Source: Dehalococcoidia bacterium (GTDB lineage: Bacteria > Chloroflexota > Dehalococcoidia > Plut-88900). Taken from it: a stretch of DNA of 64,000 bases. The position numbers and the translations under genes are program-made. Positions within the stretch are counted from its first letter, which is position 1, and each line of letters begins with the position of its first letter. Location of the stretch: the NCBI GenBank assembly GCA_965249275.1, contig CBDFLQ010000006.1:288001-352000 (forward strand), read 5' to 3'. The notes under the pieces are model-generated. The model made no database searches, was not told the DNA's origin, and was given only the letters and a program-made list of their open reading frames with translations. Shown here piece by piece: positions 4,432-39,410 of this stretch.

Positions 4432-5181
4432 TCACTGCTCCAACTCGAGCATCCGCTTCTCAGCAGCCTTAATCCTGCGCCGATTGGCGAGCTTTGAAAG
4501 CCATATCCCTATCTCGTAAAGCACGATGATTGGGCTGGCGAGAAGCGTCTGGTTAAAAGGGTCGAACGTGGGTGTAAAGATGGCTGCCGCTATAAACGCA
4601 CCGACAATCGCCAGCTTCCTCCTCTTGGCAAAACTGCCTGGCTTCACAACCCCCAGCCTGGACAACAGGGTCATGACCAGAGGCGTCTGGAACGAAAGCC
4701 CGACCCACAGAGTGAGCGCGAGAATCAAGTTAATGTAGCGGCCGATTCTGATATTGGCCTCGGCAACGTCCCCCCCGAAGGTTAGGAGAAAGTTGAGGGC
4801 AGGGGGAATTAGGATGAACCAGGCAAACACTACGCCCGCAGCAAAGGAGAGGATGATTCCGGGCACGGATACGAGAACATAGCGCTTCTCTCTGGGCGTG
4901 AGGCCCGGGGCTGCGAACATGATCATCTGAAAGAGGACTACGGGCATGGCCAGGATGAATCCACCGAGGAGCGCCACCTTGAAGTAGGTGGTTATAAATT
5001 CAGTGGGGTCGATATAGACCAGCGGGGTATCGCCCGCGGGACCCTTCAGGAATTCCAAAACGCGGAACGTAAACACGGCGGAAATGCCCGTGCCAACTAA
5101 AAGAGCCAGCAGGGACTTGATAAACCGGCTCCGCAGCTCGTTCAGATGCCCCAGTATGGAGATCTTGTCGGGCGCGCTCAT
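4432..5181 (-). CDS. tatC: Twin-arginine translocase subunit TatC
   Basis: HLNELRSR, PGLTPREKR, FQTPL, TPTFDP, LYEIG; six hydrophobic segments. Confidence 0.95.
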   Translation of the reverse strand: MSAPDKISILGHLNELRSRFIKSLLALLVGTGISAVFTFRVLEFLKGPAGDTPLVYIDPTEFITTYFKVALLGGFILAMPVVLFQMIMFAAPGLTPREKRYVLVSVPGIILSFAAGVVFAWFILIPPALNFLLTFGGDVAEANIRIGRYINLILALTLWVGLSFQTPLVMTLLSRLGVVKPGSFAKRRKLAIVGAFIAAAIFTPTFDPFNQTLLASPIIVLYEIGIWLSKLANRRRIKAAEKRMLELEQ

Positions 5182-5471
5182 AGCTGGTGGGGGCCAGTGC
5201 GGTTTGGAGGAGGATCAGCCTTGGGAGAAGGTGTCACGTCCTCTTCCCTATCCTCTGAATGGAAGCCGACCGGCTGGTCGGTCGTAACGGTAGTCTCGGC
5301 CTTTGACTCTTCCACAGCAGCCGAGGCAAGGCCTTGCGCAGCGCGTTGAAACTCCTGGACCGCCCCGCGGAGGGACGTGACAAGTGAGATGAGTTTAGAA
5401 GGCCCGAAAAGCACCAAGGCTAGCGCCAGGATGACTAGGATTTCCAGGATTCCGACGTTTAGCGGGTTCAA
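5178..5471 (-). CDS. TatA/TatB family subunit (probable TatB)
   Basis: GILEILVILALALVLFGPSKL N-terminus; overlaps tatC start by 4 nt. Confidence 0.8.
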   Translation of the reverse strand: MNPLNVGILEILVILALALVLFGPSKLISLVTSLRGAVQEFQRAAQGLASAAVEESKAETTVTTDQPVGFHSEDREEDVTPSPKADPPPNRTGPHQL

Positions 5472-5582
5472 AACTGAGTATCGCCTGGTTTATCGGCCCA
5501 TTTGACTGGTACCCTTGGGAGTATAGCATGGTGATAGATGTTCCCCCTGATCCCGTTCACATAGAGGAGTGACATATCCCTC

Positions 5583-5611
5583 TTGACTTTATAATACATG
5601 TGTTCTATTAT
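5583..5611 (+). promoter_or_regulatory. Near-consensus sigma70 promoter with LexA-like box in the spacer
   Basis: TTGACT(5583-5588)-N17-TATTAT(5606-5611); AATAC-ATGT-GTTCT at 5593-5606. Confidence 0.7.
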
Positions 5612-5616
5612 TGGGC

Positions 5617-6310
5617 CAGTCTAGACCCGACACCCACCTTAAGGAGGTACCGCACAACCTAGGGAAGCCCACCCGACCCACCCGAGGACTCAACGTCTAA
5701 GCCCATCCCAAAGGGCGGCCCACAAGCCGTCCCACGGCTCAAGCGAACGCCGCCATCTCCTCTACCAAGGGCCCCGGCTATCCCTTCCCTGACCATCAGG
5801 CGATGGAAGACGCCCTGGTTCGCTAACGTTCCATGTGAGGCTCCTAACGGAGATGCCGCTCCTTCAAGCGGAATAGCGGTCGGATAGGCCCGGCGCCGAG
5901 GCCCTCTCGGTACACCGACTGCTCAATAAAGCCGGGAGCCGGTGGTCTACGCGCTCCGGGTCGCACCGGCAAACTTGGACACATTACGCCTGCAAGAGGC
6001 CCGGCATCGGACGCTGGACGGGCCTCCTTGCCGCCCTATAGCGGTGCAGCCAACCCCCGGAGTCGGACTCGGACCTGCTGGCCCTGAAGGTCCCTGCCCA
6101 TGTCCAGCGTATACAGGGCCACAGGCCGCAGCAGCGGCAAAAGCGGGCCGGGCGCCCTTGCCTCAGGGCGTCGGAGCACCCGAGGCACAGGAACAGGGGC
6201 AGCGTCCAGCAAGCGTCTTTCATCGCCTTCCCAAAACCCAACAGACAGAACTGAAACCGAAACCCCACAATCGAAGATGGAACATCCGCCTCTGGAGGAC
6301 TGAAGAAAAC
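5617..6310 (+). ncRNA. Candidate large structured non-coding RNA (family unknown; ends approximate)
   Basis: No credible CDS; 16-bp helix 5798-5813/6213-6228; stems 5875-5883/5915-5923, 5938-5944/5964-5970, 5992-6003/6019-6031, 6079-6086/6114-6121; promoter directly upstream. Confidence 0.55.
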
Positions 6311-6387
6311 GCCGGTGTGTCACTAATCTATTGAACGAATACACCCCCTTTCCCCTCCTCCCCTAACCCTGTTAACATTCTCGGCGC

Positions 6388-6681
6388 ATGGAACGGGAAC
6401 AGCTTCAGCAATTGATCTTCGAATCCGTCGAGGATTCTGCCATCGAACGATTTAAGGGCCGAGTCCCAGTCGGCCTCGGCAGGTCCACCGCCCGTGCCCT
6501 CATGTTCAAGATCACCTGCGATTGCGGCGTTACCGCCATGCTGTCGGTTGATACACCGGAAGAGGCCTCGGAAGAGAAGATCCACGACATGGTCCCCCAT
6601 CTAGCCAAAACCCTCGACAATCAGGCCTCCCAGTTCAAGCGCATCCCCTGTGATGCCCACTCCCGCATGTCTATGGGGTAG
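6388..6681 (+). CDS. Small hypothetical protein with CxC and CxxH motifs
   Basis: 97 aa, host-like codon usage, 24 nt upstream of the next gene; possible extended -10 TGtTAACAT at 6370-6378, no SD. Confidence 0.7.
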   Translation: MEREQLQQLIFESVEDSAIERFKGRVPVGLGRSTARALMFKITCDCGVTAMLSVDTPEEASEEKIHDMVPHLAKTLDNQASQFKRIPCDAHSRMSMG

Positions 6682-6705
6682 CCTTTCCCACGCCAGGAGA
6701 AAATC

Positions 6706-7821
6706 ATGCAATCATCGGACGTTGTCATACTGGGCGGAGGAATCGCCGGTTGCCTCACCGCCTACTACTTGGCGCAGCGCGGGGTCAAAGCCACTGTCGT
6801 AGAGCGAGAGGCTATCGGAAGCCACGCCTCCGGATACGCTTTCGGGGGCCTGAGCTACCATAGCGGCTCCGGAATCCCCGGCCCGGTCTTCCCCATTGCC
6901 AAGGCCGGCTACTTCCTCCACGAAGATCTTTACGATGACCTCCTCGAAGTCACGGGCGTCGATACCCATTACCGCAAGGGCGCCAACGTCAAGATTGCCT
7001 TCACTTCTGAGGAGGCGCGAGACCTCGAAGAGGAAGTCGCCTGGCAGACCGAACTCGGCATCGATTCCAAGATCATCGACCTTGCCCAGGTCCAGCAGAT
7101 CGAACCTCGCGTAAATCCCGAGGCCATCAGTTTCCGATACATCGAGGAGTCAGCTGCGGTGGAAGCTTACCGATTGTCTGTCGCTGTTATGCAGGCTGCA
7201 GAGAAGCTAGGTGCAGTCCTAAGGCACGGCAACGCCGTTGGCATAAAACGTAACGGCTCCCGCCCAGAGGCCATATTGACTGAGAGTGGTGAGGAAATAC
7301 CCTGTGACACCGTAGTCGTGGCCATGGGCCCATGGAGCACCGATGCCGCTTCCTGGCTCGATTTTCCCGTGCCAATTTGGCCCCTCAAAGGACAGATAGT
7401 CCGACTCGAGATGCCCGGGGAGCCCTTAGCCTGCTGGTTCGGATACCACGACAGTTACTGTGGCACCAAGGCTGACGGCCTAACCTGGTGCGGCACCACC
7501 GAGGAGAATGCAGGATTCGACGTGAGTACTCACGTCCAGGCCATGAATAGCGTCATTTCCGACGCCGTTAAGATGATCCCCTCCCTCGCCGACGCCCGTC
7601 TCGCCCTGCAGACCGCCTGCCTCCGCCCCATGGCCTCCGACCTCTTTCCCATCGTCGGCCCCGTACCCGGATGGGAGGGCGTCTACATGTGCACCGGAGG
7701 CGGCCGTAAAGGCATACTCCTGGGCCCTGGTATGGCCAAAATAGTCGCCGACCTCATTACAACCGGCCAGTCAGACATAGAGCACTCCGGAATCCTCCCC
7801 TCCCGATTCTCCAAAGACTAA
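6706..7821 (+). CDS. FAD-dependent oxidoreductase, DAO/glycine oxidase (ThiO-like) family
   Basis: GGGIAG dinucleotide motif, VVAMGPWS, PLKGQI, ACLRP, PIVGP; AGGAG RBS. Confidence 0.88.
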   Translation: MQSSDVVILGGGIAGCLTAYYLAQRGVKATVVEREAIGSHASGYAFGGLSYHSGSGIPGPVFPIAKAGYFLHEDLYDDLLEVTGVDTHYRKGANVKIAFTSEEARDLEEEVAWQTELGIDSKIIDLAQVQQIEPRVNPEAISFRYIEESAAVEAYRLSVAVMQAAEKLGAVLRHGNAVGIKRNGSRPEAILTESGEEIPCDTVVVAMGPWSTDAASWLDFPVPIWPLKGQIVRLEMPGEPLACWFGYHDSYCGTKADGLTWCGTTEENAGFDVSTHVQAMNSVISDAVKMIPSLADARLALQTACLRPMASDLFPIVGPVPGWEGVYMCTGGGRKGILLGPGMAKIVADLITTGQSDIEHSGILPSRFSKD

Positions 7822-7914: not shown

Positions 7915-9110
7915 GAAACCTCTGAACAAGTCTAAGGGCATAGGTAATAGGTAAGATAGGGAGAGTAAGGCCAAAGCTGAGGTGAGATTTGATGGAGCAG
8001 CCGACATTTGCAGACTTGGAATACGAGGGCAAGAAGCGAAAGACCCGCCGGGAGATATTTCTGGAGCGGATGGAGGACCTGGTTCCATGGGGAAAGTTAG
8101 AGGAGCGAATCCGGCCCTACTATTCCAGGGCGGGCCGTGGACGGAGGCCCTACGAGTTGTCGGTGATGCTGCGGATACACTGCGTGCAGCTGTTCTACAA
8201 CCTGAGCGATCCGGGCATGGAGGACATGCTCTACGAGGTGGAGTCGGTGAGGCGGTTCGCAGGTCTGAGGCTGTCCGGCCCCTTGCCTGACGAGACTACG
8301 ATACTGAACTTCCGCCATCTGCTGGAAGAGCAGGAGTTGGGTCGGGGGCTGTTCGAGGAGATCAACCGTCATCTGGAGTCTCGGGGACTGAGGCTCAGGG
8401 AGGGTACGATTGTGGATGCGAGCATCATCGAGGCGCCGGCGTCTACGAAGAACCGTGCTGGAGAGCGAGACCCCGATATGCACCAGGTGAAGAAGGGGAA
8501 GGAGTGGCACTTCGGTATGAAAGTGCACATTGGTGCAGACGCTGACACGGGGGTGGTGCACAGTATGAGTACGACAGCTGCGAACGTGCATGACGTGACG
8601 GAGGCGCACCGGCTGCTGCATGGAGGGGAGAGGCGAGTGTGGGGAGATGCGGGATATCAGGGAGTGGAGAAGCGGGCGGAGAATCGGGATATGGATGTGG
8701 AGTGGCGGGTGGCGATGAGACCTGGACGGCGTCGGAAACTGAGGGCGGGGAGCTGCGAGGCCTTAGCGGAGAAGAGCAAATCATCCATCAGGGCTAAGGT
8801 GGAGCATCCGTTCCTGTACGTGAAACGGCACTTCGGCTACGCCAAGGTCCGCTACAGGGGCTTGTACAAGAACACGCAACGGGTGGCGATGCTGCTGGGG
8901 CTGGCCAACTTGGTAAGGGCCGAGCGCCACTTAGCGGTGTGACGGAGGAGCAGTGTGGTCAAATCCGGGTCGATGGTGACTGGATGCCCTGACAGGCCAG
9001 AACATAGGATGCAAATAAGCCACCGAGACGCAACATTACGACCCAACCTCTCCCCAAAACTCCATGCAAGACAACCTAAGCTGGTTTACAGTGAGTTGTT
9101 CAGAGCTTCC
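7915..9110 (+). mobile_element. Complete IS5-family (IS5 subgroup) insertion sequence, 1196 bp
   Basis: TIRs GAAACCTCTGAACAAGTC (7915-7932) and GAGTTGTTCAGAGCTTCC (9093-9110), 15/18 match; 4-bp CTAA duplication at 7911-7914 and 9111-9114. Confidence 0.95.
7992..8942 (+). CDS. IS5 family DDE transposase
   Basis: YNLSDPGMED, PDETTILNFRHLLE, IVDASII, WHFGMKVHIG, GDAGYQG, RAKVEHPF. Confidence 0.96.
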   Translation: MEQPTFADLEYEGKKRKTRREIFLERMEDLVPWGKLEERIRPYYSRAGRGRRPYELSVMLRIHCVQLFYNLSDPGMEDMLYEVESVRRFAGLRLSGPLPDETTILNFRHLLEEQELGRGLFEEINRHLESRGLRLREGTIVDASIIEAPASTKNRAGERDPDMHQVKKGKEWHFGMKVHIGADADTGVVHSMSTTAANVHDVTEAHRLLHGGERRVWGDAGYQGVEKRAENRDMDVEWRVAMRPGRRRKLRAGSCEALAEKSKSSIRAKVEHPFLYVKRHFGYAKVRYRGLYKNTQRVAMLLGLANLVRAERHLAV

Positions 9111-18209: not shown

Positions 18210-20804
18210 ATGGCGACCGGCCCCGCCCGACAACTACCCAACTCCGTCCTTCCCGAGAAATACCGCCTTTCCCTCACCCCCGACCTCCAGAACTTCACTT
18301 TCGAGGGCCATGTAGACATCGATGTAAACATAGAAACCCCAGTAACCGACATCGTCCTCAATGCCGCGGAACTTGCACTCCACGAGGCAACTCTTACACA
18401 GGGAGAAACCGTCATACAAGCCCGTTCTATTGCCGTCGATGAAGAAGCCGAAACGGCCACCATTACCCTTGAGTCGGAGGCCGCCCCCGGCCCCGCCACT
18501 CTCTCTATCTCCTACCGCGGCACCCTTAACGACCAGCTAAAGGGTTTCTACCGCAGCCGCTATCAGGACACCAAAGGCAACGAGCAATACCTTGCCACCA
18601 CCCAATTTGAGGCCACCGACGCCCGCCGCGCACTGCCCTGCTGGGACGAACCCGCTCTCAAGGCAACCTTCCAGGTTTCCATGACTGTCCCGTCTAATCT
18701 CACCGCCGTCTCCAATACCCCGGCGACAAGCGAGTCCGACGCGGGCGATGGCCTCAAGACCGTCTCTTTCGCAGAGACTCCTCGCATGTCTACCTATCTC
18801 CTCGCCTTCATCGTCGGCGACCTCGCCAGCGTAGAAGCCACCGCGCCTAACGGCACCCTCATGCGGGTATTCGCTACCCGCGGCAACGAGCATCTCGGCC
18901 AATTCGCCCTCGATACCGCCATTCGTCTCCTGGAGTATTACAACGACTATTTCGGCATTCCCTACCCATTGGAGAAACTCGACCACTTCGCCATCCCCGA
19001 CTTCGCTGCCGGCGCTATGGAAAACTGGGGAGCAATCACCTACCGTGAGGTAGCCCTTCTCTTCGACCCCGAGAACTCCGCCGCCCCCACCCGCCAGCGC
19101 ATCGTCGAGATCATCGCCCACGAAATGGCCCACATGTGGTTCGGTGACCTCGTTACCATGGACTGGTGGGACGACCTCTGGCTCAACGAAAGCTTCGCCT
19201 CCTGGATGGGCAACAAAGCCACCGACGCCCTCTACCCCGAGTGGTCAATGTGGACACAGTTCTTGTATCAGGATATCGGTGAGGGCCTCCGCATTGACGC
19301 TCTTCGCAATTCGCACCCCATTGAGGCCAATGTCAAGGATCCCGGAGAAATCCGGGAAATATTCGACGCCATTTCTTACAGCAAGGGTGCTTCCATTCTC
19401 TGGATGCTTGAGCAGTACCTCGGTGAAGACGCCTTCCGACAAGGGCTCCGCACCTACCTCTCTCGACACATGTACGGCAACGCCCGTGGCGCCGATCTGT
19501 GGCAAGCTATGGAAGACGAGTCTGGTCAGCCCGTCATCTCCCTAATGGATTCCTGGATAAAGCAGACCGGCTTCCCCGTCCTTACCATCGAGACCTCCAC
19601 TGACGGCAAAACCTTGTCCCTTACCCAAGAACGCTTCCTCTACGACCGCCTCGCCGGTCAAGACCCCGGCCCCACCACCTGGAAGGTTCCCGTCAGTGTC
19701 ATCACCTCCAATAGTCCTCCCACCCCACCCGTCCTTATGGAAAGTTCCAGTATTACAATCCCTGGAGGGCCGGAATCCGGTAAGAGTCGTTGGACTAAAG
19801 TTAACCCTGGCCAAACGGGCTTCTACCGAGTCCGCTACTCCCCCGACGCCCTCTCCCCCCTACTCGATGCTGCCTCCTCATTCGAGCTCCCTCCCACCGA
19901 CCGCCTCGGCCTCCAGTCTGACCTCTTTGCCCTCGTACGGGCCGGTATGGAGCCCGCAACCCGATACCTGGACCTCGTCGGCGCCTACAAGGCCGAGACC
20001 GACGCCACCGTTTGGACAGACCTGTCCACCAACCTCCGAGAGCTTGAAGTCCTCCTCGCCGACCACCCATCCCTTGATCAGCTGCGCGCCTTCAATAAGA
20101 CCGTATATGAAGACATCGCGTCGCGGCTTGGCTGGGAAGAGTCCCCCGGCGAAGGCCACCTCGACGCCCTGCTCCGCACGACTGTTTTAGCCCGCGCAGG
20201 CGGCCTCGGCAACGAGTCCGTCTTGGAAGAGGCACGAGACCGCTTTCAGGAATCCTTGCGGGACCCCGCCTCCCTCCGCGCCGACATTAGGGGCGTCGTC
20301 TACTCTCTCGTCGCCTTGGACGCCGACCGCGACCTCTATGACACTCTCTGGGACATGGAAAAGAGGGCTACCCTCCAGGAAGAGAAGCGACGCCTCCTCG
20401 GCGCCGTCTCCCGCCCCAGGGACCCGATTCTCCTGCAAGAGACCCTTGAACGTTCCCTCTCCGACGATGTCCGTTCCCAGGACACCCCACTCGTAATCAT
20501 CAGCGTCGCCGCCAACCGATTCGGTCGGGACCTGACCTGGGACTTCGTCAAGGAGAACTGGTCCGAGTTCGACCGCCGCTACGGCAAGGGCGGCTTCATG
20601 ATCATGCGCCTCGTCTCCATCACTGAAGACTTCAACACAATCGAGAGAGCTGACGAAGTCGAGGCCTTCTTCGAAGCCAACCCAGTTGCCGGCGCCCAGC
20701 GCACCGTTCAACAGTCCCTGGAGAGCATCCGCCTCAACGCCCGATGGCTGGACCTAAACGCCAACCAAATCGCCAACTGGCTAAACACCCACCCCTCCAT
20801 TTAG
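18210..20804 (+). CDS. pepN: M1 family aminopeptidase (PepN/puromycin-sensitive type)
   Basis: GAMENWG, HEMAH-x18-E (WLNES), YSKG; ERAP1-like C-terminus. Confidence 0.93.
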   Translation: MATGPARQLPNSVLPEKYRLSLTPDLQNFTFEGHVDIDVNIETPVTDIVLNAAELALHEATLTQGETVIQARSIAVDEEAETATITLESEAAPGPATLSISYRGTLNDQLKGFYRSRYQDTKGNEQYLATTQFEATDARRALPCWDEPALKATFQVSMTVPSNLTAVSNTPATSESDAGDGLKTVSFAETPRMSTYLLAFIVGDLASVEATAPNGTLMRVFATRGNEHLGQFALDTAIRLLEYYNDYFGIPYPLEKLDHFAIPDFAAGAMENWGAITYREVALLFDPENSAAPTRQRIVEIIAHEMAHMWFGDLVTMDWWDDLWLNESFASWMGNKATDALYPEWSMWTQFLYQDIGEGLRIDALRNSHPIEANVKDPGEIREIFDAISYSKGASILWMLEQYLGEDAFRQGLRTYLSRHMYGNARGADLWQAMEDESGQPVISLMDSWIKQTGFPVLTIETSTDGKTLSLTQERFLYDRLAGQDPGPTTWKVPVSVITSNSPPTPPVLMESSSITIPGGPESGKSRWTKVNPGQTGFYRVRYSPDALSPLLDAASSFELPPTDRLGLQSDLFALVRAGMEPATRYLDLVGAYKAETDATVWTDLSTNLRELEVLLADHPSLDQLRAFNKTVYEDIASRLGWEESPGEGHLDALLRTTVLARAGGLGNESVLEEARDRFQESLRDPASLRADIRGVVYSLVALDADRDLYDTLWDMEKRATLQEEKRRLLGAVSRPRDPILLQETLERSLSDDVRSQDTPLVIISVAANRFGRDLTWDFVKENWSEFDRRYGKGGFMIMRLVSITEDFNTIERADEVEAFFEANPVAGAQRTVQQSLESIRLNARWLDLNANQIANWLNTHPSI

Positions 20805-20842
20805 AGCAGTGGTCGTCCTCCGTTCCGTGTGATGACTCTTAT

Positions 20843-21007
20843 CCCCTCTCCCTCGATGGGACCCTTGCATAACCCATTTGGGAGGAACTGGGGCCGCTCA
20901 TGCTGAGACTCTCGAAGTATGAGAGGGGGAGGGAGGAAAGGTGATCTGGATGGCGCCACTGGCGTGAGAGGCTAGGGCAGAATACTCGCCAAGGAGAGTG
21001 AGGGTGG
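20843..21007 (+). repeat. Composite family A repeat with truncated MITE and micro-hairpin inserts
   Basis: Same architecture as 1715-1935 with an internal deletion. Confidence 0.75.
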
Positions 21008-21027
21008 AATCCCTACTCTCTTTGACA

Positions 21028-21062
21028 AAACATGGGAACCTGTTTAGCAGGTTCCCATGTTT
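21028..21062. terminator. Probable bidirectional terminator between convergent genes
   Basis: 15-bp stem AAACATGGGAACCTG/CAGGTTCCCATGTTT. Confidence 0.7.
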
Positions 21063-21104
21063 CCAAATACAAGTTAGGGCGGACGGATCAACCTTATCCT
21101 TGGA

Positions 21105-22121
21105 TCACAAAACTTCCTTCAACCCTTCCTCCAGCTCGTCCAAAGATGCGTAACCCTCGTACTTGGCCTTTATCACTCCATCGCCGTCGATGATGAACAC
21201 CCAGGACTCGTTAAGGTAGTCCTCGGGCTCAGTTAAACCCCAGTCCACCGCCACGGGTGAGTATATCCCCATGTCGAGGCTCGACTGGATTTCTACCGGG
21301 TTGTCGTAGATTTCTACGTGAATAAAGTTGGCCTGCTCTGCATACAGGTTTTTCAATTCAGTAACCGTGTCGACCTGCGGCCCGCACGTCGGTGATGTAC
21401 AGAACCCGGGGCTCGACATCACCACTACAGACGGCATCCCCGATTCTAGTGCCTCCGCTATGGTTAGTTGGTACAGGTCGATATCTGCCCGAGGCCAGGT
21501 CGTTATCTCCGTCAATCCCGCCTCGTCCGTCGCCGTTTTGTTAACCGTGAGAGGCGGCGTAGAGCCAATATTCGGCGTGAAGGTTGCCTCTTTGACCTCT
21601 ATATCCATCACCGCAGAAGCCAAGGTTTCCTCACCCCGAGCCACAACCGCTTCGATTTGCCAGTCGCCCGTCTTGTCGAAAGTCAGCTCCGAGACGTAGT
21701 TCCCCCGGGTCCCGAACGGCCACAAGTGGAACCTCCCCGTCACTTTTTCCACTTCATCCCCGTCGTACAGGCTCCTCACCTGAATCTGGGGCAGCGTCAC
21801 CAGCCCCTCAGAAGTCTGAAGCACGAAGGAAATTCTGTTGGCCCCGACACCCAGGTCTTTGGTTCCCAGCAGCCCTTCCAGGTCCGGGAAAGTAAGCGCG
21901 GCCATTGCCGCTGGGGTTTCCGTGGGGGCCTCCGAAGGGGTCTCGGTGGGGATTGTAATTGGCGTCGCAGTAGCGGGTGTTGTTCCTCCACCACAGGCCT
22001 GCAATGCTAGCAGGCCGGCGGCTAAGGCGAGTACAAGAATGGCCAGTCTCCTGGCCCTTCGAGTCTTCTGACCCAATTTAGAAGCCCGTGGCGTAGGATC
22101 CGAACGTGAATGCAAAGACAT
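21105..22121 (-). CDS. Lipoprotein with C-terminal thioredoxin-like domain (start may be TTG 22076)
   Basis: Lipobox-like LQAC, Pro/Thr linker, FCTSPTCG, FIHVEIY, WVFIIDGDG. Confidence 0.78.
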   Translation of the reverse strand: MSLHSRSDPTPRASKLGQKTRRARRLAILVLALAAGLLALQACGGGTTPATATPITIPTETPSEAPTETPAAMAALTFPDLEGLLGTKDLGVGANRISFVLQTSEGLVTLPQIQVRSLYDGDEVEKVTGRFHLWPFGTRGNYVSELTFDKTGDWQIEAVVARGEETLASAVMDIEVKEATFTPNIGSTPPLTVNKTATDEAGLTEITTWPRADIDLYQLTIAEALESGMPSVVVMSSPGFCTSPTCGPQVDTVTELKNLYAEQANFIHVEIYDNPVEIQSSLDMGIYSPVAVDWGLTEPEDYLNESWVFIIDGDGVIKAKYEGYASLDELEEGLKEVL

Positions 22122-23346
22122 TGAAGTCCTCCGAATTGGAGCTAAGTTTCAGTTCGTGGCTCCCGTACGCCGGTAACAGTATCAGACTATACAACCTCGG
22201 CTCGTCCACCGTGATCACCGTCATCTCTTCCCCGTTCAGACGCAAGTCTTCGCCCCAAGCTTCCTGTGCTACAGGCTTATCGTCGATGGTTATAACCACG
22301 TCGTATGGGTCTGCACCCTCGGTGTTGATTACGACATTTACAGACGTACCGAAGAACCTGAGGGCTATGTAGTCCTCCAGGTTCTCGGTTGCCCTTCCGT
22401 GCTCAATGCTCTCCGGGCCGTTAATCCAGTGACCCTTCAGGTATAGGTAGTGGTTCCTGTGCTGGCCCGGGTCTTCGTATTCATTTGAGGTGTTAAAGTC
22501 CGTGAAGAAGTACTCGTTGTTGCCGTAATACGGTATCTGCGCTCCCATGTTCCGGTCCGTGCCGGCATACAGCTCCCGAGTCTGGAGAACCCTGCCATCC
22601 TCGTCGAAGGCCCCTTCGTCCAGCTCTGGCCCTGCGTCCCTGTTCGCCTGGATGTCGGACACGTCAGCCCCGATCTCTTCAAGCAGGTCCCGGATCCATT
22701 CTTCAGTCTCGTCATACCGCCCTTCTCCGAAGTGCCTGTAACGGATCACGCCTTCGTGGTCTATCAGGTATTTGGCCGGCCAGTACCGGTTGTTGTACGA
22801 CCGCCACGTCCTGAAGTCGTTGTCCTGGGCCATTCGCCAGCCCAGGTCGTGCTGCTCGACTGCCGCCAAAACGTTGTCGAAGTCCTTCTCGAACTCGAAC
22901 TCCGGCGTGTGAACCCCGACTATGTTTAGGCCCAGGTCGGCATATTTCTCATGCCATTCTCTAAGGTACGGCAGCGTCCTGAGGCAGTTGACGCACGTGT
23001 ACGTCCAAAAGTCGACTAGAACAACCTCTCCCCGAAGGCTGGCCAGCGTGAACTCATCGGTGTTGACCCAGCCGGATATGCCACTCAGGTCAGGCGCGAG
23101 GCTTCCCACCTCACCCGCCACTTCCGAATACACTTTCGGCGTCGGCATCTCCACCGGCTCCGAGGGCGTTGCAGTAGGATCAGTCGTGGCTGTGGTGTCA
23201 GACGTATCCTCTTCGGTTGCTGTAGCGGTATTGTCCTCACCCGCAGGGGCGCGCTCATTTCCGCACGCAACCGCTGTTACTGCCAGAATCAGCAGTACGG
23301 CAACTAGTCCCAGCCCCATCCTCATCAATCGGCGATATTTCCTCAT
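22078..23346 (-). CDS. Redoxin-domain lipoprotein (DipZ C-terminal-like)
   Basis: AVAC lipobox, DFWTYTCVNC, GVHTPEFEFEK, YWPAKYLID, AFTFG end. Confidence 0.88.
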   Translation of the reverse strand: MRKYRRLMRMGLGLVAVLLILAVTAVACGNERAPAGEDNTATATEEDTSDTTATTDPTATPSEPVEMPTPKVYSEVAGEVGSLAPDLSGISGWVNTDEFTLASLRGEVVLVDFWTYTCVNCLRTLPYLREWHEKYADLGLNIVGVHTPEFEFEKDFDNVLAAVEQHDLGWRMAQDNDFRTWRSYNNRYWPAKYLIDHEGVIRYRHFGEGRYDETEEWIRDLLEEIGADVSDIQANRDAGPELDEGAFDEDGRVLQTRELYAGTDRNMGAQIPYYGNNEYFFTDFNTSNEYEDPGQHRNHYLYLKGHWINGPESIEHGRATENLEDYIALRFFGTSVNVVINTEGADPYDVVITIDDKPVAQEAWGEDLRLNGEEMTVITVDEPRLYSLILLPAYGSHELKLSSNSEDFNVFAFTFGSYATGF

Positions 23347-23485
23347 ACTTGTCCTTTCAATGGTCTACTCGGACGCCCCGTCTTCGGCACGTGCCCTGGT
23401 CTTCAAGTTCTCCACCATACATCATCTTGTCCAGGTTAGATAACGTTCAGGATCGGCAAAGGTAATGTGTCCAATCGCATCTAAC

Positions 23486-24856
23486 CTAATTTTGCCATAT
23501 TGCGCCGGCCACTGAGACCAAAGACCCGCCCATAGGGTCCGCCGGACACTGATCATAAGCTGTAACTTCCCCCGACACCCCCTCTCCCATCACCCGAAGT
23601 GCCAGGTATATAGGCGTCAATCCGCAAATGCGCCTCTGGTCCTGCTCTCTCCGTATCCCTTCCAGGAAACCCTCGGCATCTCCATTACAGGCAGCCTCAA
23701 GAGACAGGTAGTCGGCTCTCAAGAGAGCCGCTCGCTCGTTCCGGCCCCACGGCGCGTGGTCCCCGAAAACCGGGCCTACGTGCGCCAGGTCCCCCGCAGC
23801 TATTACCAAGGTCTTTCGACTCTCCATCACCCCCCGCAACTCCGACACCACAAAATCGAACGCCGCTTCCCCCTCCGCCACCCCACCCCCATTAACATAC
23901 CTACCCATATGACCGCACAGAACGGGCAAAACGTGAGGCAAACGCCCCTTGGGATTTGCCTTCCTAACCAGGTAGTGTAACCAGACCAGTGCCAACTCTA
24001 TCGAGTGCTCCTTGATGTGGTGCTCCTCTTCCTCAAACGCCGACTCCCCACCCAGCCCCGCCGCCAGAGACTTCGCCAACTCTTTGTCCGTGGGAAGCGG
24101 ACCCCACGGTGTCGCGTAGCTCTGTAGAGTCGGAGTTATCTTGCAGTCCCCCCCTGCATGGTCCGTCCCGAGAATTATTGCCAATTCACACTCTGCCGCC
24201 GCATCGGAAACATGCCGCCATGTCTTCGCATAGCTCCGGTGCCCTCGATGATAATCAATATGCGGACTCAGCACCCCCATCACGCGCCCCTCCGCCCCCG
24301 GTGAGGGGACGTCCTCATTCCGTTCGCCCTGATCTGCCGTAAGTCCGCCTGTGGAGGATCGAAGGGTTGATCGAACGGGATGAGGGCGTTGGGTTGGAGT
24401 TCTCTCAGTATGAAGAGGCTCCTCCCCCACCTCCTCCATATACCTATCAAACGTCTTCTCCAAAACAACCGGGTCCGCCGGATAGCTGGGCCCGGCCAAA
24501 GCGGGAGTCCTGTATGGCAAACCGCGGTACGACTCCAGCATCCGCGCCCGAGCCTCCTCGAATCGGGTCCCTTCCAACAGGAGCGCCTCGTCCAGGCGGC
24601 CAAAGAACGCGTCCACCTGTTCCTGCGTAATCGAAATCCCGTGAAGCAGCATAGCCGCCGTCCTGATGCTCGGCAGGTCCCTCTGCCCGTCGCTGAGAGC
24701 CAAGAGAGGAATCAACTGCACCGGTGCAAGAAGCTCCTCTCCCGAAAGCGACATCGGGTCCCGCAAATGCAGATACTCCCGACCCCCCTGCTGCACCCTC
24801 TTTATGTCCAAGGCTCTAAGCTTGGGCCGCAAATTCAAATCCCTCATCGCGCCCAA
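23486..24856 (-). CDS. AmmeMemoRadiSam system protein B (MEMO1 family) with internal repeat-derived insert
   Basis: AGPSYP, PHIDY, GTDH, EHSIE, GDLAHVG, ICG motifs. Confidence 0.9.
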   Translation of the reverse strand: MGAMRDLNLRPKLRALDIKRVQQGGREYLHLRDPMSLSGEELLAPVQLIPLLALSDGQRDLPSIRTAAMLLHGISITQEQVDAFFGRLDEALLLEGTRFEEARARMLESYRGLPYRTPALAGPSYPADPVVLEKTFDRYMEEVGEEPLHTERTPTQRPHPVRSTLRSSTGGLTADQGERNEDVPSPGAEGRVMGVLSPHIDYHRGHRSYAKTWRHVSDAAAECELAIILGTDHAGGDCKITPTLQSYATPWGPLPTDKELAKSLAAGLGGESAFEEEEHHIKEHSIELALVWLHYLVRKANPKGRLPHVLPVLCGHMGRYVNGGGVAEGEAAFDFVVSELRGVMESRKTLVIAAGDLAHVGPVFGDHAPWGRNERAALLRADYLSLEAACNGDAEGFLEGIRREQDQRRICGLTPIYLALRVMGEGVSGEVTAYDQCPADPMGGSLVSVAGAIWQN

Positions 24857-24921
24857 GATATCACAACCTACCCGAATCTCACCTATCGTTGAAGATCGTT
24901 GGTCACGCTCTAGGTGCAGAA

Positions 24922-25311
24922 TTAGCTATCCGCCTTAACAGGTTCATCCCCCTCCCACTCCCCCTCACAAATCGTCTCCAGCCACAACACTATCCCAGAC
25001 AACTTCTCATACGCCACAAGCCTCGCACTATCCTCCCTCGACTCCTCCGCCTCCGACACCACCGCCGCCATCTGCCGCACCACCCGAGGCCCCACCTCCA
25101 TCGCACCCTCGCTCCCCGATGTCGCCCATTTAACCAACACGTACCGGGCTATCACACCGACAGGCAAGCCCAGGCTTCGGCTCATCCCTTCCAGTGTAGG
25201 CATCGGGTCTATCCTGCTGTACAACGCCACATCCCGCTTGAAATTGGCGTCGGGATCTGCCTCGTCTATCGATTCTTCGAAAATCTCAAGCCTGACCGTC
25301 GGGCGTTCCAT
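24922..25311 (-). CDS. Conserved hypothetical protein (DUF6027-like, from recollection)
   Basis: DPDANFKRDVALYSRIDPMPTLE...RYVLVKWATSGSE; ATG 25311 avoids overlap with the ROK gene. Confidence 0.6.
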   Translation of the reverse strand: MERPTVRLEIFEESIDEADPDANFKRDVALYSRIDPMPTLEGMSRSLGLPVGVIARYVLVKWATSGSEGAMEVGPRVVRQMAAVVSEAEESREDSARLVAYEKLSGIVLWLETICEGEWEGDEPVKADS

Positions 25312-25387
25312 GTTGCATTGCCTTTCTGTCTTGTCTCGCACCCAATGATATAATGCGCCAACTTTGCCCGTCCCCACCCCACCCCTC

Positions 25388-26386
25388 ATGACACCCGGCG
25401 ACTACAACTCTACGCAATTCATACTTGGCATCGACATAGGTGGCACATCCCTGCGCGCCGCTCTCGCCGACTCCCCATCTTCCATCCTCGCCAAGGCCCG
25501 TCGCCCCGCCCCCGCCGACCAACCCCCCGAGGCCATGGTCGAAGCTATCAGTTCTATGTACCGTAGCCTCCTTGAACAGGTCGGTTCCAGTGGTGCCGTC
25601 GCCGTCGGAGTCTCCTCTCCTGGCCCCGTCGACACCGTTGCCGGAGCCCTTGTCGATCCCCCCAACCTCCCCCAATTCACCACCGTACCCCTCCGGGATA
25701 TGCTCCAACGAGCGTTGGATCTCCCCATTTCACTCGAAAACGACGCCAATGCCGCCGCCATCGCCGAGCATCGAGTCGGCGTGGGCAAAGGGACTCGACA
25801 CATGGCCTACGTGACCCTCAGCACCGGCATCGGAGCAGGTATCATTTCCGATGACCGATTGGTCCGAGGCGCAAGGGGCGCCGCAGGAGAGGTTGGTCAC
25901 ATCAAGCTGATGGTCGATGGCCCCCAATGCGGTTGCGGACAAAACGGCTGCTGGGAAGCCCTCGCCTCCGGCTCCGCAATCCGCAGGGAGGTTCTCCGTC
26001 AAATCAAGGAAGGCCGGGAATCCACCTTGAGCCGCTACGACACCTCCGCCATCGACGCCCAAGCCGTATTCCAGGCAGCTCAATCCGGCGACTCCCTTGC
26101 CACCGAGGTCATCGATAGAGCTGCCTATTTCACCGGCATAGGGCTCTCCGCCGTAGTAGATGTCCTCAACCCAGAAATGGTCATCGTCGGTGGGGGTCTG
26201 ACAAACATGGGCGACCGGATACTCGGTCCCGCATTCAAGACCTGCCGGGATCACATCTTCCCCCTCCACGAAAGATCCCTCCGATTAGAGGTCAGCACCC
26301 TCGGTGACGATGTATCATTGATCGGGGCCCTCGTCCTCGCCGATGAATTGGCCCGTTCAAACGAAGTCCCGACAGGGAACACGTAG
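25388..26386 (+). CDS. ROK family sugar kinase (glucokinase-like)
   Basis: GIDIGGT, LENDANAAA, STGIGAG, GEVGH, CGCGQNGCWE; extended -10 TGATATAAT at 25346-25354. Confidence 0.92.
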   Translation: MTPGDYNSTQFILGIDIGGTSLRAALADSPSSILAKARRPAPADQPPEAMVEAISSMYRSLLEQVGSSGAVAVGVSSPGPVDTVAGALVDPPNLPQFTTVPLRDMLQRALDLPISLENDANAAAIAEHRVGVGKGTRHMAYVTLSTGIGAGIISDDRLVRGARGAAGEVGHIKLMVDGPQCGCGQNGCWEALASGSAIRREVLRQIKEGRESTLSRYDTSAIDAQAVFQAAQSGDSLATEVIDRAAYFTGIGLSAVVDVLNPEMVIVGGGLTNMGDRILGPAFKTCRDHIFPLHERSLRLEVSTLGDDVSLIGALVLADELARSNEVPTGNT

Positions 26387-26402
26387 GTAGGAGTGCCGAC
26401 AT

Positions 26403-27704
26403 ATGAACTTCGAAAAGTCCATTGAACTCCACAAAAGGTCCAGCCGATCACTGGCTGGCGGGGTCAGCAGCCATCACCGCCGCGGCGAGCTCCCCGTGCC
26501 TCTCTTCTTCGAAAGGGCCAAGGGGTCCCGACTCTTCGACGTGGACGGAAATGAGTTCATCGACTACATCATGGGCAACGGTGCAGCCATCTTCGGCCAC
26601 TCCCCCGACTTCCTCCTTGACTCCGTCCGCCGGATGCTCGATCGCGGCCAAATCATCGCCGGTCAGCACGACCTGGAGATAACAGTCGCCGAGCTAATCA
26701 ACGACTCTGTCCCTTCCTCCGAGATGGTCAGGTTCGGCAGCTCAGGCACCGAGGCCGTCCTCGCCGCCGTCAGGATCGCTCGTGCCTACACCAACCGCTC
26801 CCTTATCATCAAGTTCGAGGGCCATTACCACGGCTGGGCAGACCCCGTCCTCTATAGCGTCGCCCCTAACACCCAGGACGCCGGCCCCCATGACTCCCCC
26901 CTCCCCGTCCCCGAGTCCGAGGGCCAATCTCCCGGGTCCGCAGAAGAAGTCATTGTCCTCCCCTGGAACGACCTCGACGTTCTCTCCAATGCTGTCCGCA
27001 AACACTCCGGAGAGATCGCAGCCATCATCATGGAACCTGTACCCGTCAACACCAACAGTGCATTCCCCAGGCCCGGTTACCTGGAGGGCGTCCGCAAGCT
27101 CTGCGACGAAAATGGCATAGTCCTCATCTTCGACGAGGTCATCACCGGCTTCCGACTCGCCGTCGGTGGTGCTCAGGAGCTTCTTGGCGTAACTCCCGAC
27201 CTGACTACCTTGGCCAAGGCCGCAGCCGGTGGCTTCCCCTTCTCCGTTATTACCGGTAAGCGAGAGGTCATGCAGCCCGTATCTGAAGGCCGAGTCATGC
27301 ACGCAGGCACCGCCAGCGGCAACCTCGTATCTCTCGCCGCCTCCGAGACCACAATCAACAAGCTTAAAGAAAACGACGGTGAGGCCATCCGACGCATGCA
27401 CCACGTCGGCGAGCTTCTAATGGACGGCCTCCGTCAGCTAGCCCATAAGCACGAGGAGGACGTACTGGTCACGGGGCCGGCCTCAATATTCAACATGGCC
27501 TTCACCCCAGAGGCCTCCCTCCCCGACTACCGCGCCTTCTACGAAAAGGTGGACCACGAACGTTACGTCACCTTCCGCCAGAAGCTCCTGGAGGGCGGCA
27601 TAAGGGCCAACATGCACGGCAAATGGTTCCTTTCTTGCGCCCACACCGAGCAGGACGTGGAACAAACCCTCGCCGCCGCCGACCAAGCCTTCCGCGCCCT
27701 CTAA
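26403..27704 (+). CDS. Class III aminotransferase, glutamate-1-semialdehyde aminomutase-like
   Basis: SGTEA, FEGHYHG, LIFDEVITGFR, PDLTTLAK..GG. Confidence 0.88.
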   Translation: MNFEKSIELHKRSSRSLAGGVSSHHRRGELPVPLFFERAKGSRLFDVDGNEFIDYIMGNGAAIFGHSPDFLLDSVRRMLDRGQIIAGQHDLEITVAELINDSVPSSEMVRFGSSGTEAVLAAVRIARAYTNRSLIIKFEGHYHGWADPVLYSVAPNTQDAGPHDSPLPVPESEGQSPGSAEEVIVLPWNDLDVLSNAVRKHSGEIAAIIMEPVPVNTNSAFPRPGYLEGVRKLCDENGIVLIFDEVITGFRLAVGGAQELLGVTPDLTTLAKAAAGGFPFSVITGKREVMQPVSEGRVMHAGTASGNLVSLAASETTINKLKENDGEAIRRMHHVGELLMDGLRQLAHKHEEDVLVTGPASIFNMAFTPEASLPDYRAFYEKVDHERYVTFRQKLLEGGIRANMHGKWFLSCAHTEQDVEQTLAAADQAFRAL

Positions 27705-27775
27705 CCCAGACCCCCAAATCCTTGACCCCCGTCACTCCCAGGCCCTCGGCCGTGTTCTACCGAGGCCCTTAACGC

Positions 27776-28091
27776 CGTCATTCCGGCCCTCGAGCCGGAA
27801 TCCATCCCCGCCCCTTCCCGTATGGGCAGGTCTCGTGCCTGCTCCATCTTTACCTCCCACCCTCCAAGCAGATTTAACCTCGCCATTCCGAGCCCTTACC
27901 CCCTGTCATTCCGAGGCTCCGCGAGGAATCTAAGGCATATTTCTCTCCCAACTAGACAATTGATTACCCCATCCACACCAAGCAGGCGTCTTGATCGTAT
28001 CCCCGTTTCCTCGACGAGAGAGGGCTAGGGTGAGGGTGATCCCATTCATGCAAACCGCCCACCTGTCTGCCAAGCAGACAGGTGGGCGGTT
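27776..28091 (+). repeat. Intergenic repeat cluster (family C x2, GTAG-like, family A, 18-bp perfect hairpin)
   Basis: 27776-27804, 27819-27844, 27904-27939, 28001-28040, 28053-28091. Confidence 0.82.
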
Positions 28092-28133
28092 GAACATCTT
28101 CCTTGGTGCTAGAACTTTTCGAAGCGAGTCCCT

Positions 28134-29711: not shown

Positions 29712-29834
29712 TGCCTCTCCTCCTGCGAGTTTTATTTTCTGTCACCTCTCCCTTGATGGGTCGCAGATGCGCCCCTGGCGTGAGAGGGCTAGGGTGAGGA
29801 TGCGCTTACATCTCCACCTGGCCGTGTGTTGGGT

Positions 29835-30992: not shown

Positions 30993-31057
30993 CAAGTCTT
31001 ATCCTTTCTTCATTCCTATCCGACTCTTTATTTTCAATCGATCCCCTTCCCCCTCGG

Positions 31058-32806: not shown

Positions 32807-32989
32807 CCTTCACCTCTCGACTTCTCTCCATCATCCCGACCAATTTATATGTCATTCCGAGGCTCCGCGAGGAATCTAAGGCGTACGCCCTCACCCATCC
32901 ACTAACGAGCCAAACACGTTCGAATACGTTGTAGGGTGAATTCATTCCTACATCCTGCAAAGCACACCCATTACAATGGAGTTCCCACC

Positions 32990-33787: not shown

Positions 33788-33979
33788 TTACTTCTCCTAT
33801 TAAGGTTGATCGAAAGACATCTGCGCACCTATGAATAAACCCCCGTCGGTTTCACAGCTTCCCCCTCCCTCGACGGGAGAGGGTCAGGGTCGAAGACTCG
33901 CCGAGGAGAGTGAGGGTGAATCTCGGTTCCTCAGGTTTCTCTTCTGTCACGCGCCTTTCGAGTCTTTACGAAATCCCCG

Positions 33980-35215: not shown

Positions 35216-35591
35216 GATTGCACCTCCGGGGTATGAAAACCCACCATTTCTTCAGGCCTAGTCCTCGCTATATGAGGAGCCTCAACGTCTGCGCATATTA
35301 GCACAATGTTTCCCTTCTTTGTCCTTTCCCCAGCCCATTACCCCCTACGGCCACTTCCATATCACTCCGGGCTTTTCCCCAGTTATTCCGATACTTTTTC
35401 GTTGTCATGCTGCGGCTCTTTTCATTGTCATAGCAAGCCCCCTTTAATTGTCATTCCGAGGCTCTGCGAGGAATCTAACGCGCCACTCCCTAAAGCAACA
35501 TCCTCAAACTATTCTCCACGTACAAAAACAACATGGCGCAAGTGCAAGACACTTACGCCATATCTTCCCTAAAGTCTAGGAAACCCTGAAA

Positions 35592-36365: not shown

Positions 36366-36412
36366 TACCCCTCCCTACTTGTCGAAACCTGAGGCCCCGA
36401 TATCGGGGCCGG

Positions 36413-36850: not shown

Positions 36851-36858
36851 TGGTCTTC

Positions 36859-39290: not shown

Positions 39291-39410
39291 AGTTCTAAAT
39301 CATGTTCTCCGACTCTTCATTATATGACCTGGCCCCCTCAATAAACCTACCCTGTCTCTCTCCTCTTTCCGCATAATTCCCGCGCTCCGATTCGCAAACC
39401 CATCCCCTCC

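Follow-up and report, generated by a model that had tools for sequence, protein, structure and literature searches.

Among the large structured RNAs of bacteria, OLE, GOLLD, and ROOL are encoded by single- or few-copy genes that occur across many lineages, and HEARO and the omega-RNA of IscB are multicopy and mobile. As the precedent of HEARO shows, multicopy mobile structured RNAs can prove to be working parts of mobility machines. A miniature inverted-repeat transposable element (MITE) is usually well under 0.6 kb in size. Here, we describe an element at positions 5548–6343 of a 64-kb stretch of DNA (the window) from the genome of an uncultured Dehalococcoidia bacterium. The element is, with high confidence, mobile, non-coding, self-promoted, and structured, and we consider it probable that it is a MITE-like but ~0.8-kb non-autonomous transposable element, whose payload is a small unit of transcription for a structured non-coding RNA of ~0.65–0.7 kb.

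MITEs with sigma-70-like promoters or small RNAs have been described; a review (PMC10969869) covers the 204-bp Correia elements of Neisseria and QMITE1/2 of Coxiella, with CbsR3/13/16. Near-identical promoter regions repeated upstream of unrelated genes have been put forward as putative mobile promoters (PMC3575422), and STAB-SD is a 5′ mRNA stabilizer of cry3A of Bacillus thuringiensis (PMC4113751).

The evidence presented here is wholly computational, several of the motif counts are counts of regular-expression matches, and neither the copies of one genome nor those of related genomes are independent of each other. All coordinates refer to the plus strand of the window. The window's own genome (G000; 2.9 Mb, 87% complete) was compared with related metagenome-assembled genomes (MAGs) of congeners (G001–G005, G007, and G008). 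In the window, a stretch of 916 bp without a credible gene (5472–6387) lies between a minus-strand open reading frame (ORF) of 97 aa that ends at 5471 and a plus-strand ORF of 97 aa that starts at 6388. An initial annotation of this DNA had singled out the gap and a near-consensus promoter at its start, both of which were borne out (the promoter at 5583–5611). It had read the gap as a single ornate RNA gene comparable to OLE, GOLLD, or ROOL, with a domain of ~400 nt closed by a 16-bp stem. This part had to be given up: the locus is one of 54 dispersed copies with transposon ends, and the ~400-nt domain is a part that is not conserved across the family.

The gap holds one copy of a dispersed repeat family

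The DNA of the gap gave 61 BLAST matches in G000, which group into 55 loci. The homolog search that the initial annotation had called for was run with nhmmer, iterating a profile built on the best-conserved section (5638–5818), and recovered 54 copies in G000, all of them near full length (from model positions 1–2 to 171–178 of 178). The element in the window measures 796 bp, and copies with both ends measure 739–902 bp. For family-wide counts, copies from G000 and seven related MAGs were combined into a set of 127.

Judged by sequence searches, the family is seen in only one genus of uncultured Dehalococcoidia among the genomes sampled. BLAST found the repeat in 8 of 8 genomes of this genus and in 0 of 3 genomes of other genera of the same taxonomic family; three weak matches in other families (E ~1e-4) did not recur in the profile search. 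A sequence-only profile of the 5′ domain matched in 4 of 4 genus genomes as well as in G000, and gave no match in 2 genomes of other genera of the taxonomic family, nor in 144 from other families of Dehalococcoidia. A 26-position pattern of the conserved 5′ block was found in at least 80 contig stretches; those listed are all titled "MAG: Dehalococcoidia bacterium," which agrees with the taxon that the initial annotation had guessed. Searches among plasmids, phages, and viral contigs gave no match to the repeat, and a phage or plasmid origin was rejected. A description of the family was not found in a literature search, the scope of which did not include supplementary repeat catalogues.

Transposon ends and empty sites indicate a mobile element

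Seventeen long copies could be aligned with sharp ends, flanked by five-base direct repeats. In this alignment, the left end reads TGATCCCGTTCACATAGAGG.GTGACA and the right end GTGTCACTAA.CTA.CGAACGAGTACA. In the window, these sharp family boundaries define the plus-strand terminal inverted repeats TGATCCCGTTCACATAGAGGAGTGACA (left, 5548–5574) and GTGTCACTAATCTATTGAACGAATACA (right, 6317–6343), and the target-site duplication CCCCC is found at 5543–5547 and again at 6344–6348. The inverted repeats are of the TG...CA type and imperfect, with 14 of 32 ungapped identities; for a representative copy, the similarity between left and right ends was reached in 27 of 2,000 shuffles. The left end was found at the expected distance in 17 of the 54 G000 copies, and a recognizable right end in 24. 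Among the 127 copies, 46 have a recognizable right end and 29 have both ends, and for 24 of these 29 the 5-mers on the two sides are identical at no fewer than 4 of their 5 bases.

The window locus is empty in G003, G001, G008, G004, and G007, where the flanks 5180–5548 and 6345–6798 are contiguous. In G003 the two flanks overlap by exactly 5 bp, and the empty site reads GTTACCCC followed directly by TTCCCCC, with the 5 bp present only once. The locus is occupied in G002 and in G005, where the copy carries a different internal cassette (see below). A second locus (G000 C7:948887) is not clean. G000 and G002 hold a full element there, and G003 (L172:1476-1500) and G005 (L173) hold a right-end remnant of ~22 nt, which adjoins the same 5-mer and promoter-like flank; it is either the scar left by a deletion or a target that already resembled the end. 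At C7:585488, most congeners hold variant elements, so that there is no empty site to compare.

Because of the 54 dispersed copies, the inverted ends with their duplication, the five empty sites, and the restriction to one genus, the DNA of the gap is first of all a mobile repeat. With inverted repeats, a fixed 5-bp duplication, an empty site, and multiple copies without a transposase, it has the features of a MITE or non-autonomous DDE transposon; its 739–902 bp are more than the miniature size of a MITE.

No transposase gene and no conserved ORF were found in the interior of the element. G000 carries 22 rve-type transposase genes, in three insertion sequence (IS) families of 12, 8, and 2 copies (e.g., C7:520700-522400 (L159) and C7:459000-461000 (L160)). 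A Pfam scan of two of the three families found rve and rve_3 in both and LZ_Tnp_IS481 in a 394-aa transposase, and both were therefore assigned to the IS481 family. One of these resident IS481-type families is ~1.06 kb long, with a transposase of 320 aa, and the other ~1.34 kb, with the transposase of 394 aa. Read from the outside in, the right end of a representative copy matches the left end of the 1.06-kb IS in 19 of 32 bases (reached in 0 of 2,000 shuffles). Neither blastn nor tblastx aligned the interior of the element significantly with any of the three resident IS families, and a derivation from one of them was rejected. A retroelement (group II intron or retron) was likewise rejected for want of an associated reverse transcriptase, as RVT_1 had no match in G000 and matched in only 3 of 9 genus genomes, all repeat-carrying.

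Some further arrangements of ends and ISs were observed in G000. A solo left end lies at C6:928812, among housekeeping-looking ORFs. The 1.06-kb IS family sits inside palindromes (GTCATTCC...GGAATGAC) that resemble repetitive extragenic palindromic (REP) sequences, the 1.34-kb family adjoins a G-rich hairpin repeat (CCCTCTCCC-TCGA-TGGGAGAGGG), and several resident IS copies lie directly beside RNA elements.

Copies keep an internal promoter and a Shine–Dalgarno-like motif without a start codon

A promoter scan placed a sigma-70-type promoter on the plus strand, with the −35 hexamer TTGACT at 5583–5588, a spacer of 17 nt, and the −10 hexamer TATTAT at 5606–5611 (10 of 12 matches). As the initial annotation had assumed, the promoter belongs to the unit: its box, GTGACA-N4-CCCCTTGAC, is kept in 120 of the 127 copies, and a regular expression found it in 50 of the 54 G000 copies. 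Within the family, the −35 hexamers are TTGACC (58 copies), TTGACT (31), and TTGACA (22), and the commonest −10 hexamers are TATATT (55) and TATTAT (29). With up to 2 mismatches allowed, the box GTGACA-N4-CCCCTTGA was also observed at 58 G000 sites outside the loci of the main family, 31 of them with a −10 hexamer matching at 4 or more of 6 positions. The box may be a common promoter architecture or factor-binding site in the host.

Downstream of the promoter, at 5641–5647 on the plus strand, lies the Shine–Dalgarno (SD)-like motif AAGGAGG, which is not followed by a start codon. AGGAGG is present in 118 of the 127 copies, 30–39 nt after the −10 hexamer in 115 of them, and in none of the 118 is there an ATG, GTG, or TTG 4–14 nt downstream. 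An ortholog of RNase J is encoded in G000 (it scores 571 bits, the cut-off being 400), and the canonical motif of the 16S 3′ tail is present. The sequence features of a STAB-SD-type stabilizer, i.e., an SD-like motif near the 5′ end, no start codon, complementarity to 16S, and RNase J, are thus all found.

In four metatranscriptome runs from two studies, assembled contigs cover 5656–6251, including other cassette variants; some carry loose ends of other cassette classes, and summed depth is highest at 5691–5771. To this extent the contigs support the initial annotation, which had named metatranscriptome coverage as a check. Since they were assembled from a multicopy family, they show presence in RNA libraries only, not the start, end, or strand of an RNA. 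Uncovered parts of the window and the absence of a contig bridging 6251–6403 were not counted as evidence. The sponge label of the RNA runs reflects small shares of sampled words (0.04–0.12), and no claim on habitat is drawn from it.

No terminator-like site was found in 5300–6800. This says little, because terminator-like sites occur at chance level in this genome region (16 in window positions 20000–39999, against 13.3 ± 4.3). Rho-dependent termination in the A/C-rich 3′ tail of the element was considered and dropped, as no Rho above cut-off was found in G000 at 87% completeness (27.7 bits, against 509).

Helices of the 5′ domain and the clamp covary among copies

The predicted RNA has a 5′ domain of 180 nt, followed by two strands of a long stem, the clamp, that enclose the cassette. 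Three helices predicted in these constant parts, P1, P2, and the clamp (P3), are shown by compensatory changes in the alignments to covary.

P1 pairs AGGGAAG (5661–5667) with CTTCCCT (5784–5790), both on the plus strand. The invariant GGGAA/UUCCC served to anchor the register in 103 copies. Over a run of eight offsets, 68–100% of copies are paired, against at most 10% at the neighboring offsets. Offset 4 holds A-U in 59 copies, G-C in 25, G-U in 14, and A-C in 5, and offset 5 holds C-G in 29, U-G in 22, and G-C in 14. Inside P1 follows a nearly invariant block in the family alignments, GAGGACTCAACG-N4-AGCCCATCCC (5684–5709, plus strand), and then the P2 hairpin, GGGCGGC/GCCGTCC (5713–5732, plus strand), with strands 5713–5719 and 5726–5732 and the loop 5720–5725. 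The P2 region has 85 distinct sequences among 126 copies, and no fewer than six alternative stems fold in this position (GGGCGGC/GCCGCCC, GGCCC/GGGCC, GGTCGC/GCGACC, GGGCAGC/GCTGCCC, GAGCGGC/GCCGCTC, and GAGCGGT/ACCGCTC). A 5′ hairpin that the initial annotation had drawn, GGCGGC/GCCGCC around AGCCGT-CCC-ACGGCT, was not borne out and is specific to a few copies; the helix that covaries there is 5713–5719/5726–5732.

The clamp pairs AGGCGATGGAAGACGC (5798–5813) with GCGTCTTTCATCGCCT (6213–6228), both on the plus strand. This is the 16-bp stem with one G-U pair by which the initial annotation had closed its domain, and it is also formed in the minimum free energy fold. Its core, GGCGATGG...CCATCGCC, is found in 54 of 54 G000 copies, with the two strands 294–630 nt apart. 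The helix starts sharply at the first G of GGCGATGG, with 94–100% of copies paired in the core and at most 39% just outside. The inner clamp covaries by cassette class (AT 32/GC 31/GT 20; CG 42/TA 30; CG 69/GC 32), as in the compensatory pair GAAGACGC/GCGTCTTC versus GAAGGTCC/GGACCTTC. On compensatory changes, too, the initial annotation was supported.

Folding energies were compared with 20 dinucleotide shuffles per strand, a test that the initial annotation had proposed. The window copy gave a z-score of −2.17 for the sense and +0.10 for the antisense strand, and four other copies gave −4.46/−3.87, −3.75/+0.59, −4.08/−1.94, and −0.83/+0.18 (sense/antisense). The effect is modest, with the sense strand lower in 5 of 5 copies folded, by which the plus strand that the annotation had chosen is the better candidate.

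The clamp encloses a cassette that differs among copies

Because cassette classes differ among copies, the region of ~400 nt inside the clamp is the variable part of the element, and the promoter, the 180-nt 5′ domain, the clamp, and the A/C-rich tail are its constant parts. The cassette of the window copy is a multi-hairpin region on the plus strand (5814–6212); across the family, cassette lengths range from 300 to 600 nt. We distinguished 16 classes among the 127 copies and ten among the 54 G000 copies, with 13, 12, 10 (the window's class), 6, 4, 3, 2, 2, 1, and 1 members. No 9-mer is common to four or more of the ten larger classes, and no core common to all cassettes was found, with one motif confined to 3–4 classes. 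Different cassettes were found between identical flanks, both within G000 (C4:6576-7440 versus C7:585488-586288) and between G005 and G000 at the window locus. These differences point to exchange by recombination, or to strain variation within an assembly.

For the window's own cassette class (29 sequences), RNAalifold predicted 104 pairs, with 98% of cells paired. In eight pairs both partners had changed; shuffles gave 2.4 ± 1.0 such pairs (0 of 500), and slid controls gave 1–5. Most of the stems that the initial annotation had listed inside the clamp could be reproduced: 5875–5883/5915–5923 forms 9 pairs, one of them G-U, 5938–5944/5964–5970 forms 7 perfect pairs, and the hairpins 5841–5852, 5856–5871, 5895–5911, 6125–6138, and 6148–6174 all fold (−3.6 to −15.1 kcal/mol). 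For 5992–6003/6019–6031 and 6074–6086/6114–6125, the pairing exists, but only with mismatches or bulges.

After the clamp follows a 3′ tail on the plus strand that is rich in A and C and poor in G and U (6229–6316). Its first 70 nt consist of 36% A, 39% C, 14% G, and 11% T, compared with 19% A, 35% C, 28% G, and 17% T in the cassette. The tail of the window copy contains an optional 21-nt mini-hairpin module on the plus strand (6279–6299). Mini-hairpins of 21–22 nt (GGAACATCCGCC-N3-GG.GGA) were observed at varied positions in other copies, sometimes in tandem, including inside the 5′ domain of G000 C6:42018, C7:805226, and of L064 and L009; they resemble a tiny insertion module.

A sister family was observed at 11 or more loci in G000 (e.g., C5:477200-478400 (L200), C6:141600-142750 (L201), and C6:128700-129900 (L202)). 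Promoter box and clamp (ATGGAAGGTCC...GGACCTTCCAT) are those of the main family and the tail is similar, whereas the 5′ domain differs. In 3 of 3 aligned copies, an ATG lies ~5 nt after AAGGAG, and by eye the length of the downstream frame differs between two of them.

The unit is non-coding and matches no RNA family in Rfam

The initial annotation had called the RNA non-coding and of an unrecognised family, and both statements held. Rfam 15 gave no match at gathering threshold on the whole window and none at E ≤ 10 on 5400–6500, by which OLE, GOLLD, ROOL, HEARO, RNase P, transfer-messenger RNA, signal recognition particle RNA, group I and II introns, and ribozymes were rejected, along with the other families of Rfam. 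At 17 loci with other cassette classes, Rfam gave sub-threshold noise only (e.g., microRNA models, at 23–33 bits against gathering thresholds of 34–95).

A decayed or unusual protein-coding gene was considered, as the gap does contain short ORFs of odd composition (130 aa on the plus strand and 94–102 aa on the minus strand), the first with three database matches. Against this, ORFs are erratic: even copies that belong to one class have them at different places and of different lengths. Across the 29 members of the window's class, substitutions on codon positions 1, 2, and 3 of the 130-aa ORF number 214, 248, and 257, without codon periodicity, and of 167 indels, 163 have a length that is not divisible by 3. 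Pfam gave no match for the 130-aa ORF or the 102-aa ORF on the minus strand. The three matches to the 130-aa ORF, all singletons among 5.8 billion proteins, come from single contigs, cover 32–85% of the query, and are without Pfam domains, which is what one would expect if further copies of the repeat had been miscalled as genes. As far as sequence analysis allows, the codon-position, indel, Pfam, and homolog tests refute a protein-coding gene, intact or decayed, and we give this explanation hardly any credence.

Two-thirds of right ends lie in register with a −35-like TTG

In 22 of 33 independent sites, TTG is found exactly 5 nt after the right end of the element, directly past the duplicated 5-mer. 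At this offset, 14 of the 33 sites match TTGACA at 5 or more of 6 positions, against 0–2 at each of 24 other offsets, and 17 of 33 have a full −35/−10 pair in register, against 0 at every other offset. Right flanks of copies in the family include G000 C7:735399 (−), C6:177385 (−), and L002:1496-1460 (−), and, in the window, 6344–6380. Two explanations both fit this register: a transposase that recognizes TTGAC, in which case the insertions that survive would be those at real promoters only, or a transpososome tethered to promoter-bound polymerase. In the literature on the targeting of MITEs and ISs, supplementary data being outside the scope of the search, no such −35-register rule was found.

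By crude ORF-based gene calls, the downstream gene is co-oriented with the element in 39 of the 54 G000 copies; the other 15 face no co-oriented gene, yet are equally intact. Of the 32 co-oriented downstream genes within 260 nt, 20 were scanned; they have unrelated functions, including two aminoacyl-tRNA synthetases, four Amidohydro_2 proteins, an amidase, an arginase, SulP, and an FAD synthetase. On the basis of these 20 genes, a riboswitch, a regulon, and a gene-specific cis-regulatory leader were rejected.

At the window locus itself, the minus-strand ORF ending at 5471 and the adjoining ORF of 249 aa are, by resemblance of sequence, presumably tatA and tatC. The plus-strand ORF of 97 aa directly 3′ of the element (6388–6681) has no Pfam match, and is kept beside the empty site in congeners at 76–91% DNA identity. 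Further downstream lies a plus-strand ORF of 317 aa (7989–8942), which we take to resemble an IS5-type DDE transposase.

The RNA as the probable payload of the element

Which parts of the element are kept bears on what is selected. The promoter box is kept in 50 of the 54 G000 copies and the 5′ module and both clamp strands in all 54, while the ends are kept in 17 and 24, and the 15 copies without a co-oriented gene are as intact as the others. This favors selection on the RNA or its transcription over selection on mobility or on driving a neighboring gene. We therefore lean toward the RNA itself, and not just its promoter, as the selected payload, in the form of a stable RNA that would act independently of the neighboring gene, for the element or for the host. 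In the model we propose, a DDE transposase of the IS481 family, supplied by another locus of the genome, would move the element in trans. The element would insert so that 5 bp separate its right end from a −35 hexamer downstream, and would point to the neighboring gene. RNA polymerase would start near 5618–5620 from the strong internal promoter, and the AAGGAGG without a start codon, ~25–30 nt from the 5′ end of the RNA, may bind the 30S subunit and shield the RNA from RNase J, by analogy with STAB-SD. The RNA would then fold into the constant 5′ domain and the long clamp that holds the exchangeable cassette.

The element could instead be a plain selfish MITE, its promoter and AAGGAGG left over from the promoter and ribosome-binding site that a lost transposase gene once had, its stems a by-product of G+C-rich palindromes and nested repeats, and its RNA without function. 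The terminal inverted repeats, the target duplication, the empty site, and the restriction to one genus all suit this explanation, as does the order of left end, promoter, SD-like motif, interior, and right end, which is that of an IS minus its gene. So do the modest fold z-scores (−0.83 to −4.46), the 21-nt mini-hairpin and other small repeats nested in copies, and the cassette swaps at one locus, as would arise from gene conversion. However, 120 of 127 copies have retained the promoter hexamers while being otherwise 10–30% divergent, and a start codon follows AGGAGG in 0 of 118. All 54 of the 5′ modules are full length, while over half of the ends are unrecognizable. The changes in P1, P2, and the clamp are compensatory, and the interior is unlike the resident transposase genes by blastn and tblastx. 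On balance, we think this explanation unlikely.

Somewhat more doubtful still is a mobile promoter with a stabilizing leader, in which delivery to the downstream gene would be selected and the RNA would be the 5′ part of that gene's mRNA. It would account for the co-orientation of 39 of 54 downstream genes and for the 22 of 33 independent sites in which a −35-like hexamer follows the right end at a distance of 5 bp, and also for the lack of a terminator-like site in 5300–6800, a point lessened by the chance level of such sites in the region. Precedents exist: STAB-SD elements stabilize whole mRNAs (PMC4113751), and both putative mobile promoters (PMC3575422) and promoter-bearing MITEs such as Correia (PMC10969869) are known. 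Promoter delivery does not, however, require 600 nt of conserved, covarying RNA, and would leave the intactness of the 15 copies without a co-oriented gene unaccounted for. In addition, the host promoter is mostly retained just downstream, with a full −35/−10 pair in register in 17 of 33 sites, and, as a weak point, no contig from the RNA libraries bridges the element and the ORF at 6388.

A number of observations weigh against our preferred reading, i.e., a non-autonomous transposable element that carries a selected structured RNA. On the side of structure, most helices of the window's cassette class never vary. Applied to just the 5′ domain (68 copies), RNAalifold predicted only 12 pairs, because MAFFT misaligns the variable hairpin; register-anchored counts were used for this reason. 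A test of every alignment column against every other was dominated by the C/G composition. The G-U pairs by which the initial annotation had assigned the strand did not decide between the strands, with 5 G-U against 4 A-C on the 32 pairs common to the predicted folds of both strands. The contigs from RNA libraries are assemblies only; they may stem from carried-over DNA, and the large number of copies inflates their summed depth. On the side of mobility, the left end of the element is not significantly like any resident IS end (reached in 802 and 521 of 2,000 shuffles), and no autonomous partner with matching ends flanking a transposase gene was found in G000, which is 87% complete. The window copy is itself a weak example of the −35 register, since its flank reads TTTCCC...TTAACAT and it lies just downstream of a promoter-like site at 5502–5529. 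Lastly, the one-genus range and the cassette swaps at the same locus fit a young selfish repeat homogenized by gene conversion, which could mimic purifying selection.

A bolder reading goes further than the one we prefer. The family might represent a new class of mobile ornate RNA, in which a self-promoted scaffold of ~0.7 kb, made of the constant 5′ domain and the clamp and carrying exchangeable cassettes, would be an active partner in transposition or in host RNA or ribosome biology, and in which the transposon would seek out the DNA just upstream of sigma-70 −35 boxes, either because it is tethered to promoter-bound RNA polymerase or sigma or because its transposase recognizes TTGAC. We regard this as speculative, with the odds clearly against it. 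Promoter homing, if true, would to our knowledge be the first bacterial analogue of the promoter-targeted integration of the yeast Ty and Tf elements.

Comparison with known systems

For genome annotation, the family means that ~54 intergenic stretches of 0.6–0.9 kb per genome in the genus, plus those of at least 11 sister-family loci, are to be read as one repeat family and not as unknown genes. For RNA biology, it adds a large, covarying, self-promoted candidate RNA that is absent from RNA databases, built from a constant domain and a clamped, exchangeable cassette. It also carries an apparent 5′ stabilizer in a phylum other than the Firmicutes, from which STAB-SD is described. A sharp and testable target rule for transposon biology is offered by the exact −35 register of the insertions.

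With OLE, GOLLD, and ROOL, the predicted RNA shares a size of ~600–800 nt, many helices, and the lack of coding capacity. It differs from them in its 54 or more copies with transposon ends, its restriction to one genus, its non-conserved central domain, and the lack of an Rfam match at E ≤ 10. HEARO and the omega-RNAs are closer in that they too are large structured RNAs with many dispersed copies that travel with a mobile element. Unlike these, the family has no Rfam match and no adjacent nuclease or transposase gene, its ends and duplication are of the DDE type, and its variable part is hundreds of nucleotides long rather than a short guide.

As to its ends, the element resembles ISs of the IS481 family, with TG...CA-type termini, a 5-bp duplication, and a right end in which 19 of 32 bases are those of the left end of the 1.06-kb IS. 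In contrast to the resident IS481 ISs, it has no transposase gene and no internal similarity to them, and its left end is not significantly similar; the 1.06-kb IS, by eye, lies in REP-like palindromes and not beside −35 boxes. Like MITEs with promoters or small RNAs, the element is non-autonomous, with inverted repeats, a short duplication, many intergenic copies that often lie just upstream of genes, an internal promoter, and element-derived transcripts. At ~800 bp it is much longer than the Correia elements, for which PMC10969869 gives 204 bp. Its interior is no simple foldback of the ends, as it consists of a 180-nt domain and a clamp around an exchangeable cassette of 300–600 nt. Unlike in promoter MITEs, its promoter points inwards and would transcribe the element, the RNA part is better kept than the ends, and insertions stand in a fixed register with the −35 hexamer.

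The AAGGAGG of the family resembles STAB-SD (PMC4113751) in being an SD-like motif close to the 5′ end from which no translation starts, and in that the host has RNase J and a 16S tail of the canonical kind. It differs in heading a non-coding RNA on a mobile element, where stabilization is our inference. Compared with the putative mobile promoters, finally, the family is a unit with defined transposon ends and a long structured transcript, and the promoter of the host is usually still present downstream.

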